Shown here piece after piece: positions 15,157-17,357 of a DNA stretch of 64,000 bases. Under the pieces are notes generated by a model. The model searched no databases. It was given only the letters and a program-made list of their open reading frames with translations, and was not told the origin of the DNA. Source of the DNA: a virus; the IMG/VR virus record IMGVR_UViG_3300036857_000203, positions 8,436-72,435 of that record. One strand, written 5' to 3'. Within the stretch, counting starts at the first letter, position 1. Every line of letters begins with the position of its first letter. Both the position numbers and the translations under genes were made by a program.

Positions 15157-15717
15157 AAGCCTGCCAAGCCCGGCCAGGACTGAACGCACCAAGCCAAGCC
15201 CGGCCCTGCCTTGCCTCGCCTCGCCAAGCCCTAGCTAGCCGGGCCAGGACTGCCACGCCAAGCCAAGCCCTGTCAGGTCCTGGCGTGCCGTGCCTTGCCG
15301 TGCCGTGCCTGCCGGGCCAAGCCGTGCCTGTCCGAGGCCTGCCGCGTCTTGCCGGGCCTAGCCCTGCCGGGCCTGCCGCGACATGCCGCGTCTTGTCAGG
15401 TCGGGACATGCCGGGCCATACCGCGCCCGCCTTGCCTCAACTGCCGCGACATGCCGAGCCTGGACCTGCCATGTCCAGCCGTCCGAGCCGGGCCAATGCC
15501 ACGCCTGCCGAGCCAAGCCAGCGTCGGGCCAAGGCATGCCGTGACATGTCATCCACGTAGATGACGTGCCTGCCATGCCCCGCCTTGCCGCGCACCGCCG
15601 GGCCGAGCCTCGCCGGGCCAAGCCCCGCCGCACCGGGCCTGCCGGGCCGCGCCATGCCGAGCCACGTCCCACCGGGACGCGCCACGCCAAGCCGCGCCGA
15701 GCCTGCGTTACCGTGCC
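15157..15717 (-). ncRNA. GGY-NN pentamer array, 8 units (putative guide-RNA array)
   Basis: About 100 pentamers; 4-nt phase breaks (GGCA on minus strand) at plus positions 15162, 15251, 15310, 15374, 15442, 15506, 15571, 15640 and 15704 (variant); directly downstream of the RAMP-like operon. Confidence 0.85.
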
Positions 15718-15725
15718 TAAGACTT

Positions 15726-16256
15726 CTACCGTTGGGCCGCAGCCCTCGGTCTCTCCCCCGGCCGCCGACGCGGCGGCTGCGGGCGAGATGGCGGTTTCTT
15801 CTCGTCGTCTTTGCCAAGCTCATTCACGATGCTGTCGAGCCGGGCGTAGAACTCGCTTTCCAGTTTGGTTGTTCGCGCATGACCATGTGCATCGACCAGC
15901 AAGTTGCGGACTCGATCCATGAGCACTGCCAGGATGCGCGAGTTCTTCTCCTTCGTTGCACTCGCAACATCGACGTACGTGCCGACCGCCGACCTGGGAT
16001 CGGGGTCGTGCCGATATCGCGGAAGCACGCGCGAGAGATCGATGTCGTTGATCTCGGGACGGGGACAGCTACGGATGATCTCCTCGGCACGCGCCAAGAG
16101 ATACCTTCGATGAACTCGCGCCGGGTCCCAATCGAACAACTTGTTCAACTCGCTGTTCTGATCCCTCCCCGCCTCCACGACATCGCGTGCGTTGATCGTG
16201 CCGTTACCGTCGCGCAGCTCATCGAGTGCGGTGATCTGCTCGGTCGTAAGATTCAT
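15726..16256 (-). CDS. Accessory protein coupled to the RAMP-like gene
   Basis: GTINARDVVEAGRDQNSELNKLFDWD...YLLARAEEIIR; ATGA overlap with RAMP-like gene. Confidence 0.8.
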   Translation of the reverse strand: MNLTTEQITALDELRDGNGTINARDVVEAGRDQNSELNKLFDWDPARVHRRYLLARAEEIIRSCPRPEINDIDLSRVLPRYRHDPDPRSAVGTYVDVASATKEKNSRILAVLMDRVRNLLVDAHGHARTTKLESEFYARLDSIVNELGKDDEKKPPSRPQPPRRRPGERPRAAAQR

Positions 16257-17071
16257 GTGCTCGCTCCTGGTTGCTCGGGTTGATCGCTTGAACGAGAGCG
16301 CGTTACGGGATCGCGCCGCCGCATCACCTCAGCGTCGTACCAGCCCAGCAAGTCGGCGCTCTCTTCGTCAGCGAACGATGGATCATCGAGCGCTGCGAGC
16401 TGTGCCTCGCGCCCCTCTTTCTCGACAATGTCCATCCATTCGGGATGATCGTGGCTCACGACATCCCAGGAGCCGAAAGAGAATGCGCCGCGTTCCTGGC
16501 GCCCGTCGCCGACACCGACAATCATGCCGGCGTTCATCGCTAGATTGAGCACGTCGTCGAGCGTGATCAGGTCGCGCACATAGCGAAAGCTCATGGAGCA
16601 CGCCCAGCGCGGGAAGTAGGCGCGCGTGCGGATGTCGGGCGTCTTGGCGATGCCGGCCTGCCGCACCATCGACATGTGCAGCTGCGGGATGCCGTACAGG
16701 AAGATCGTCGGCGTGGTTACGGTAATGAGCCGGCCCACTTCCGCTCGTGTTGCGCCCGGCGTGTCGACTGCCGCCTGGGCGAGCGCTTTCTTGATGCTGT
16801 TGCCGGGGAGGTGGACGGCGGCTGGCGCATCGGCGTCGCGGCAGCGATAGACCGAGGCGCGGAACTCTTCGAGCGGATCGTGCTTGAGGGTGGCTGCGCG
16901 TGCTGCCCGGTTGGGAGCGCGTGGGGGGAGGAGTATCTGGCGCTTCGCCTTCTCGGTGAAGCGGTTCATCACGAGCGCGCTTGTGCCCAGGAGATGGAGA
17001 GTCGCGCCCACCATCTGCAATCGACTGATGAGCGGGCGCTCCGCACCAGTCTGCTTTGCCGCTTTCGCCAT
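16253..17071 (-). CDS. Cas7/RAMP-like RNA-binding protein (putative effector of the pentamer array)
   Basis: N-terminal strand + GTSALVM; HLPGNSIKKAL (cf. RAMP IPGSSxKG); IRTRAYFPRW; G-rich loop AGMIVGVGDGRQERGAFSFGSW. Confidence 0.8.
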   Translation of the reverse strand: MAKAAKQTGAERPLISRLQMVGATLHLLGTSALVMNRFTEKAKRQILLPPRAPNRAARAATLKHDPLEEFRASVYRCRDADAPAAVHLPGNSIKKALAQAAVDTPGATRAEVGRLITVTTPTIFLYGIPQLHMSMVRQAGIAKTPDIRTRAYFPRWACSMSFRYVRDLITLDDVLNLAMNAGMIVGVGDGRQERGAFSFGSWDVVSHDHPEWMDIVEKEGREAQLAALDDPSFADEESADLLGWYDAEVMRRRDPVTRSRSSDQPEQPGAST

Positions 17072-17091
17072 ATTGAGGGTTCCTGTGATCG

Positions 17092-17123
17092 AGTGTATAT
17101 AGAACAGGCGGATGCCTATCCAA
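17092..17123 (-). promoter_or_regulatory. Putative promoter of the RAMP/array operon
   Basis: TTGGAT-N16-TATATA on minus strand in the 76-bp gap to the divergent Cro-like gene. Confidence 0.4.
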
Positions 17124-17147
17124 CGCAGACTATATCAGGAAACTACG

Positions 17148-17357
17148 ATGCACAAGCGGGAAGAGTCGGCGAACCTGAACGAGGGACTACGCGCCGCGAT
17201 CGACGCTTGCGGTTCGCGCTATGCCCTGGCCAAGCGGCTCGGCCTGACACCGGTAGCAGTGCTTGATTGGTGGCGCATCCCGGCGGACTTGGTGGTCGAG
17301 GTGGAGAGAGTATCGGGCGTGCCCCGCGAGAGGCTACGCCCGGAGCTGTACTACTAA
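17148..17357 (+). CDS. Cro/YdaS-like HTH regulator
   Basis: AIDACGSRYALAKRLGLT..AV..W.RIP...VERVSGVPRERLRPELY. Confidence 0.85.
   Translation: MHKREESANLNEGLRAAIDACGSRYALAKRLGLTPVAVLDWWRIPADLVVEVERVSGVPRERLRPELYY

Follow-up and report, generated by a model that had tools for sequence, protein, structure and literature searches.

VIPR, a CRISPR-related and RNA-guided silencer of DNA, was described in April 2026 in two preprints (bioRxiv 10.64898/2026.04.26.720920 and 10.64898/2026.04.26.720927), and the locus analyzed here is very probably a VIPR system of this already published kind, carried by a soil phage of ~72 kb. It lies in a 64,000-nucleotide (nt) stretch of viral DNA, referred to below as the window, which comprises bases 8436-72435 of a single virus record of 72,435 nt (IMGVR_UViG_3300036857_000203), and it is made up of a vipr gene, a partner gene and an array of pentamer units, all three on the minus strand. 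What is added here are predicted natural targets for two guides of the array. A sequence-only reading of the same DNA had proposed a phage-encoded RNA-guided system, in which a Cas7/RAMP-like protein would polymerise on a GGY-NN guide RNA, and suspected a VIPR-type architecture; the published description fits, and the proposal is supported at the sequence level by homology to Vipr, by the array on the same strand and by two guides with candidate targets. The novelty implied by that reading did not stand, VIPR having already been published, and its idea that each subunit holds one GGY and displays one NN, giving a non-contiguous guide, coincides with the published description of VIPR, from which (for SUSP1) the mechanism suggested for this locus is drawn.

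As far as the available text of the first preprint goes, Vipr is a minimal RAMP that is mostly viral and is accompanied by one accessory (vap) gene, and its guide RNAs, the vrRNAs, comprise 9-16 YNNGG units; double-stranded DNA is read by the NN pairs alone, and each unit passes over a single target base, which is usually the wobble base of a codon (10.64898/2026.04.26.720920). The system is described there as silencing competing phages and satellites at the level of transcription, the threshold for a target is 80% with no self hit reported at that level, internal degeneracy of vrRNAs is described as frequent, and seven VIPR types are distinguished, including one with "staggered arrays with overlapping vrRNAs". 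Small-RNA sequencing confirmed the ribozyme and the single-guide layouts, and the available text of that preprint contains no such statement for staggered arrays. In SUSP1, by the accessible part of the companion preprint, each repeat is occupied by a single protomer, which holds GGY through H17, R138, D177, W178 and R179 (10.64898/2026.04.26.720927). A further preprint, likewise as far as its available text goes, reports solo vrRNAs and guides that target vipr, for which the match to self is lower than the match to rivals (10.64898/2026.10.15.759431), and a fourth VIPR preprint, by the part accessible, recovers arrays by their 5-nt entropy periodicity.

The Vipr homologue and its partner gene

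The first gene of the locus (16253..17071, minus strand) encodes a protein of 272 amino acids (aa) which, by its sequence, qualifies as a homologue of Vipr. A profile of 46 homologues matched the PDB chain 36pp_D, "SUSP1 Vipr protein" (E 5.2e-7), which was the sole relevant solved chain matched, and a comparison using hhalign with SUSP1 Vipr itself (record KT454805.2) gave a probability of 96.1% and an E value of 3.6e-9 over 50 columns only. The full-length link to SUSP1 Vipr is transitive, through the 189-aa Vipr of the related locus L044, a short form that aligned with the family profile over 168 columns (98.2%, E 4.9e-14) and with SUSP1 Vipr in BLASTP over 190 residues (E 4e-20). Searches of Pfam, NCBIfam and PADLOC gave no match for Vipr, and in PHROGs it matched only phrog_4652, a family of unknown function.

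The residues that are conserved in the family point in the same direction. The two motifs that had been noted from the sequence alone in a two-gene operon are both present, LPGNSIKKAL at residues 88-97 and AGMIVGVGDGRQERGAFSFG at residues 181-200, and the operon itself was confirmed as the 272-aa open reading frame (ORF) and an overlapping ORF of 176 aa. In an alignment of 12 sequences R150, W156, G182, G186, G188, D189, R191 and G200 were invariant, and of these, the thumb arginine R150 corresponds to R138 of SUSP1 and the G-loop residues D189 and R191 to D177 and R179. At the sequence level, both the thumb arginine and a G-loop (G182-G195, with the pattern GxxxGVGDGRxExG) are present. E71 and M72 of SUSP1 align with N91 and S92, and a C-terminal extension of ~65 aa is conserved in this clade and in the related locus L039, in contrast to SUSP1 Vipr and the short forms, which are without it.

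The family is large: a word-indexed search returned 201 matches, a search of cluster representatives (50% identity) returned 1,628 at E <=0.001 and 312 at <=1e-30, and in IMG/VR at least 536 Vipr homologues were confirmed among at least 599 pattern-matched stretches. Among contigs chosen as one genome per species, 47 of the 102 pattern matches were confirmed as Vipr homologues. Only five records of cultured phages, all of Gordonia, carry homologues (28-30% identity), and a metagenome scan for close relatives yielded only 4 distant loci. The record carries phage hallmark genes (terminase, portal, head, Erf, exonuclease and NinB), which place the locus in a viral genome; the PHROG matches were to a large terminase, portal and major head protein, an Erf-like annealing protein, an exonuclease, a NinB-like protein, a DNA methyltransferase, an HNH endonuclease and an SF2 helicase. 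The G+C content of the phage genome is 63%.

The second gene (15726..16256, minus strand; 176 aa) starts with an ATG that overlaps the vipr stop codon, and this position is the basis on which it was assigned as the Vap-like accessory gene. Homologues detected by tblastn were weak (24-44% identity) and were found in 44 of 126 related loci, nearly all of them directly downstream of vipr, and a large database held only four close homologues. No match was obtained in Pfam, PDB, NCBIfam or PADLOC, and an alignment of 35 members gave only coiled-coil noise in Pfam and PDB. By analogy with Vap1 in SUSP1, the partner may aid silencing.

The pentamer array and its guide boundaries

Downstream of the partner gene and on the same strand is a tract of GGY-NN pentamers, with GGYA units at guide boundaries (15161..15717, minus strand). 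Over the ~545 nt from 15703 to 15161 the self-identity of the tract was 0.54, 0.52 and 0.50 at lags of 5, 10 and 15, compared with 0.19-0.37 at other lags, and when 300-nt segments of the entire 64 kb were ranked by lag-5 excess, the top eight all began within 15101-15451. Of the 90 steps from one GGY to the next, 54 measure exactly 5 nt, in-phase chains of 9 GGY units occur (the longest in 100 order-2 Markov simulations of the 72-kb genome were 3-5), and the tandem-repeat finder TRF returned only periods of 5, 10, 15 and 44 in 14500-16500. A 5-nt periodic tract of ~550 nt on the same strand, as claimed by the sequence-only reading, is thus present at 15703-15161; the part of that claim that did not stand is its regularity, which is limited to the first ~135 nt (15703-15570).

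The same reading had proposed that the neighbourhoods of vipr homologues be searched for 5-nt arrays. This was done for 126 homologous loci, with an array defined as a cluster of >=6 in-phase GGYNNGGY pairs, and arrays were found on the vipr strand in 110 of the loci and on the opposite strand in two. In 107 of the 125 loci with a vipr match the array started <=1.5 kb downstream of vipr, at a median distance of 507 nt, which leaves room for one small gene; the corresponding distance here is ~550 nt. An upstream array was additionally present in 20 loci and no array in 15, five of which have <400 nt of downstream DNA. The sole two arrays opposite to the vipr strand are at 3735-3867 of L036 and 264-431 of L044. 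Very long arrays were seen in L050, L054, L062/L064 and L067-L069 (up to ~1.5 kb per block and 157 in-phase pairs), those of L050 (3210-3841, 5377-6843 and 7175-7693) flanking vipr on both sides.

Both here and in relatives, the phase of the array slips by minus one at GGC-AG|GC, that is, at a four-base GGYA unit that is followed by GGYNN. Across the 112 array-bearing loci among 130, 215 of 243 minus-one slips came after AG, a dinucleotide that makes up only 3.5% of ordinary NN pairs (175/5,029), and 324 of 472 boundary intervals were 5k-1 nt long, with peaks at 49 nt (65 intervals), 54 nt (64), 59 nt (40), 64 nt (31) and 44 nt (30), corresponding to 9-13 units. This layout agrees with the staggered arrangement in the legend of fig. 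S18 of 10.64898/2026.04.26.720920, as far as the accessible part of that preprint describes it, and judged by this grammar the array is of the published "staggered" kind, in which GGYA units one base short mark the ends of the guides. In L049 a 19-nt block (gcGT ggtTT ggcAC ggcAG) occurs three times in tandem within the array (5783-5840), from which it follows that not every GGCAG|GC mark can bound a full-length guide.

Based on the boundary marks, two guides were delimited in the regular part of the array: vrRNA A with 13 units (15639..15703, minus strand), hereafter guide A, and vrRNA B with 14 units (15570..15639, minus strand), hereafter guide B. Both are within the published range of 9-16 units. 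Directly after guide B there is a hairpin with a perfect 7-bp stem (15548..15565, minus strand; fold of 15535-15580 at -17.4 kcal/mol, z -2.4), which may be a terminator or a processing site, or may have no role. Beyond it the distal array (15161..15540, minus strand) is irregular, with phase shifts, degenerate units and tracts of 4-17 units, and these distal tracts do not fit the published range.

Predicted targets of the guides

Eight tracts were turned into NN-x-NN queries, following the method of the preprint. Within the phage, the best match of guide A was to its own vipr gene, with 21 of 26 bases (80.8%) compared with a maximum of 20 in 30 shuffles, and the other tracts were at or near the shuffle level. 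The matched site (16740..16777, plus strand) covers codons Q99-E111 and is homologous to the site predicted for guide A in other phages (below); the mismatches are at both bases of unit 3 and in units 10, 12 and 13, of which V102 and R109 of the own gene account for both unit-3 bases and one unit-10 base. Among the 126 related loci the match rose to 22/26 in L048/L049 and was 21/26 in L047 and L105, and it was always located at the homologous site in vipr.

Read antisense, with the skipped base as codon wobble, guide A spells L-G-A-[IM]-[DE]-T-P-G-A-T-[KN]-A-[DE], for which the family consensus is A-A-L-D-x-P-G-A-x-K-A. The closest relatives (proteins P0002, P0003, P0011 and P0122) read Q-[AV]-A-I-D-T-P-G-A-T-K-A-E at this site, which fixes 24 of the 26 guide bases as matches inferred from protein; when the unit order was shuffled 300 times, the highest score over the 265 proteins compared was 21, and each of the remaining seven tracts failed to beat its own shuffles. 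The predicted target of guide A is a conserved stretch of rival vipr genes, the L-G-A-I-D-T-P-G-A-T-K-A-E codons, read antisense with the wobble base skipped. The one-base skip was supported by a control in which 26 nine-unit windows were compared with the phage and the related loci: matches of >=16/18 numbered 46 under skip 1, compared with one under skip 0 and two under skip 2.

Guide B pointed to a different gene. Its units 1-9 matched 38 loci exactly in IMG/VR, compared with one locus for the reversed unit order, and 36 of the 38 are situated early in ORFs that read [FWY..]-x-P-G-E-S-G-N-P-A-G followed by an R/K-P-rich stretch, with scores of 19-25/28 for the full guide. All three of the ORF fragments tested matched Pfam DUF5681, and seven of ten matched phrog_26239 (function unknown). 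Units 4-12 matched one further contig, in which the whole guide reached 26/28 across the start codon of a gene reading V-M-P-F-A-P-G-E-S-G-N-P-G-G, against a maximum of 20 in 100 shuffles; the matched site spans 41 nt (1052-1092). On this 19-kb contig the gene (1055-1333; 92 aa) runs into the beginning of a large terminase gene, after which come portal and scaffold genes, such that the DUF5681 gene is at the usual position of a small terminase, a functional label that we infer from position. The first codons (M-P-F-A-P-G-E-S-G-N-P...) of DUF5681 genes at this position in other phages are the predicted target of guide B. In this phage the guide B motif is absent from credible ORFs, the single regular-expression match being in a low-complexity ORF of 110 aa. 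The N-terminal motif of DUF5681, F/W-K/Q-P-G-E-S-G-N-P-A-G-R/K-P, is encoded with the same bases at codon positions 1 and 2 in 36 viral contigs that look unrelated (L132-L169), and it is the kind of site that a wobble-skipping guide can reach across many phages.

Two solo tracts resembling vrRNAs were found away from the array. One (25117..25176, plus strand) has 12 units, one of them degenerate, followed by a G9/C-rich hairpin; it lies between two minus-strand genes, antisense to both, and the hairpin folds no better than shuffles. The other (6555..6629, minus strand) has 15 units, three of them degenerate, ends in GGCAG|GC and takes up almost all of the 106 nt that separate the Erf-like (6641-7777) from the NinB-like (6088-6534) gene. 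Both are in intergenic gaps of ~106-108 nt, ~8-9 kb to either side of the vipr locus, and their uninterrupted chains are of 7 units and of 6 + 5 units, compared with 3-5 in the simulations (5 in 5 of 100), so that the chains of 7 and 6 exceed all simulated values. The target searches for these tracts gave nothing convincing: for the tract at 25117, the same 35-nt site in three loci at 21/24, with a stop in the sense frame, and for the tract ending at 6629, one AT-rich non-coding chance match of 21/30. Searches with the arrays of the relatives were also made, and exact 8-unit seeds from 452 windows of these arrays gave 0, 1, 2 and 1 matches across all loci under skips of 0-3, which is no signal.

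Alternative readings and comparison with known systems

Following what has been described for SUSP1, the vipr-vap operon would probably be transcribed on into the pentamer array, and the transcript would be cut into vrRNAs at GGYA|GGY, with the last G of one guide being the first G of the next. One Vipr protomer would occupy each pentamer, its thumb arginine and G-loop aspartate and arginine holding GGY, and the exposed NN pairs would read double-stranded DNA as NN-x-NN-x, the resulting filament on the target blocking transcription. Guide A would act against the vipr genes of related phages, from which the own vipr differs at two codons, and guide B against the start of a DUF5681 gene that, in another viral contig, immediately precedes the genes for large terminase, portal and scaffold. 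With these targets, the system would disarm the VIPR of a rival and block its packaging operon during co-infection.

Several observations weigh against this account of the locus. With respect to the proteins, two of the guanine contacts of SUSP1, H17 and W178, are replaced, being aligned with N36 and G190 (N36 is nearly invariant in the clade, and relatives have G, F or W where SUSP1 has W178); none of the Pfam RAMP families matched any of the 46 family members; the ESM Atlas neighbours were only unnamed viral clusters; and the partner was ruled out as a homologue of Vap1 by an hhalign probability of 0.1% against SUSP1 Vap1. With respect to the array, the ~410 nt beyond its regular part, or about three quarters of its length, contain many phase shifts and degenerate units, and the sequencing runs that matched the stretch were three soil-metagenome DNA runs, of which one may be the source, and no RNA run (contigs from the three runs are identical over the locus and are uninformative on array variation). 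With respect to the targets, the own-vipr match of guide A, at 81%, is at the published 80% threshold, and the available text of the preprint reports no such self hit; its best match on real DNA is only 22/26, the 24/26 being inferred from protein sequences; and exact scans of IMG/VR for the guide A core gave 0 matches. The best contig for guide B has a G+C content of 57% versus 63% for the window, and guide B had no match with <=3 mismatches in the bacterial genomes searched (5 + 401). Six of the eight tracts had no target above shuffles in the phage, the 126 loci or the rival contig of guide B, and none of 489 ten-unit windows from the arrays of relatives matched this phage at >=17/20 under skip 1, compared with two matches of 17/20 under each of skip 0 and skip 2.

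The locus could instead be a decaying VIPR remnant, with intact genes, an eroding array and one or two guides, or none, still working, which we consider unlikely. The distal array does have the appearance of decay: whereas L049 and other relatives have regular arrays, here the part beyond 15570 contains many phase shifts, fragments of 4-9 units and degenerate units, and no target was found for its tracts; against this, both ORFs are full length with all of the family-invariant residues, guides A and B are clean tracts of 13 and 14 units with specific targets, and internal degeneracy is frequent in vrRNAs according to the accessible text of 10.64898/2026.04.26.720920. A decidedly unlikely possibility concerns guide A alone, which could be autoregulatory, its imperfect binding to the own vipr limiting Vipr and Vap, rather than a weapon against relatives. 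The best site for the guide in its own 72 kb is indeed the own vipr gene, above all 30 shuffles and at the cut-off, and no real DNA was found to match it above 22/26. However, the first 11 units of guide A spell A-I-D-T-P-G-A-T-K-A-E exactly, which is the version of P0002, P0003, P0011 and P0122, whereas the own gene has V and R, and the available text of 10.64898/2026.10.15.759431 reports vipr-targeting guides for which the self-match is below the match to rivals, as would be the case for an anti-rival guide A.

It is very improbable that this clade follows a different reading rule or has a different kind of target, such as RNA, in spite of the replacement of H17 by N36 and W178 by G190, the conserved C-terminal extension of ~65 aa and the unrelated partner. 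RNA targeting would be compatible with the orientation of guides A and B, which have the sense of the non-coding strand of their targets, such that pairing with mRNA would also be possible (a guide in the same sense as the mRNA could not pair); yet matches were obtained only under the one-base skip (46 versus 1 and 2), and both target sites skip the codon wobble, antisense to the coding strand, as the accessible part of the preprint allows for DNA targeting. That the pentamer tract is no guide array at all, and instead a simple satellite, a series of protein-binding sites or coding sequence of low complexity, is scarcely credible: several ORFs of 84-128 aa do span it, but a reading frame cannot be maintained by a period of 5 nt, and the association with the vipr strand (110/126 versus 2/126), the conserved boundary grammar and the specific targets all argue for the assignment of the tract as a VIPR array.

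Within the reading of the locus as a VIPR system, it is conceivable, if doubtful, that the clade represents an uncharacterised VIPR subtype. This suggestion derives from the C-terminal extension, the N36 and G190 contacts, a partner of no known family and guides without tails that would be cut at GGYA|GGY; from the presence of guides in three places in the genome, which could therefore be made at different times of infection; and from a leading guide that would hit the vipr of rivals while the own gene escapes by two codon changes.

The genes that border the locus did not emerge as parts of the system. A divergent Cro-like gene, noted earlier from the sequence alone and verified here by matches to Pfam YdaS_toxin (PF15943, E 2.5e-11) and P22_Cro (E 2.1e-4), is upstream of vipr (17112..17357, plus strand; 81 aa), and it was rejected as a component given that homologues were found in 2 of the 126 related loci. 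Just beyond the array, and on the strand opposite to it, is the SF2 helicase gene (13377..15032, plus strand), the start of which is overlapped by ~50 nt by the ORF of the HNH endonuclease (12946..13425, plus strand; phrog_99, E 6e-62). Helicase and HNH endonuclease were likewise rejected as components: just 3 and 2 of the 126 loci, respectively, have a homologue close to vipr. A scan for promoters and terminators was uninformative. Bases 150-199 of the 72,435-nt record repeat its final 50 bases, possibly a sign of terminal redundancy or of overlap in the assembly.

The characterised examples of VIPR are from Escherichia and Pseudomonas phages, and the present locus would place its grammar and its skip-1 wobble targeting in a distant, GC-rich clade of soil phages. 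It offers two concrete candidate targets, the vipr gene of a rival and the gene that opens a rival's packaging operon, and would carry the "phage against phage" picture of the published work over to staggered arrays without tails. If the assignment of guide A is true, an arms race within the Vipr family would be visible in a single genome. The nature of VIPR as a kind is unchanged by this locus.

The likeness to class 1 CRISPR-Cas is that which the preprints, in their accessible parts, draw for VIPR in general, namely a RAMP protein with thumb and G-loop, one protomer per step of RNA and periodic base flipping, and by analogy it would apply here. The differences are that the step is 5 nt rather than 6, that three guide bases are hidden per step and that the guide is non-contiguous. 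PADLOC models, Cas included, gave no match to vipr or its partner and only generic helicase matches among the five neighbouring ORFs (cas1 and cas2 were not sought window-wide), and TRF found no repeat-spacer array in 14500-16500, the rest of the window not being scanned for CRISPR arrays.

Closer at hand is the type II VIPR of SUSP1 and Pseudomonas fulva (PDB 36pp), with which this locus shares a homologous Vipr with the thumb arginine and the G-x-G-D-x-R motif, a two-gene operon, guides located downstream and predicted targets in other phages. It is distinguished from SUSP1 by a longer Vipr (272 versus 195 aa), by units that are rich in GGC rather than GGT, and by guides of ~65-70 nt that are without the conserved pseudoknot tail of ~40 nt which, according to the accessible preprint text, comes after each SUSP1 guide. 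It does not group with type II in other respects either, as the guides abut with an overlap of one base, the partner is unrelated to Vap1 and an Rfam scan of 14000-18000 gave no match, hence no hammerhead or other known RNA. The solo vrRNAs against vipr in SUSP1-like phages (10.64898/2026.10.15.759431, as far as its available text goes) resemble what was found here in the anti-rival-vipr guide, the lower match to self and the presence of tracts away from vipr. They differ in that the anti-vipr guide here is the first in the own array of a VIPR-positive phage, in an unrelated soil Vipr clade, and in that the two solo tracts share their genome with an intact system.

The closest described system is the staggered-array VIPR of 10.64898/2026.04.26.720920. 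To the extent that the available text of that preprint describes it, this type and the present locus have in common a viral genome that carries vipr with one accessory gene, an array of GGY/NN pentamers downstream of these on their strand, a one-base overlap between guides, guides of 9-14 units and skip-1 targets at the codon wobble, and we see no difference in kind between the two.

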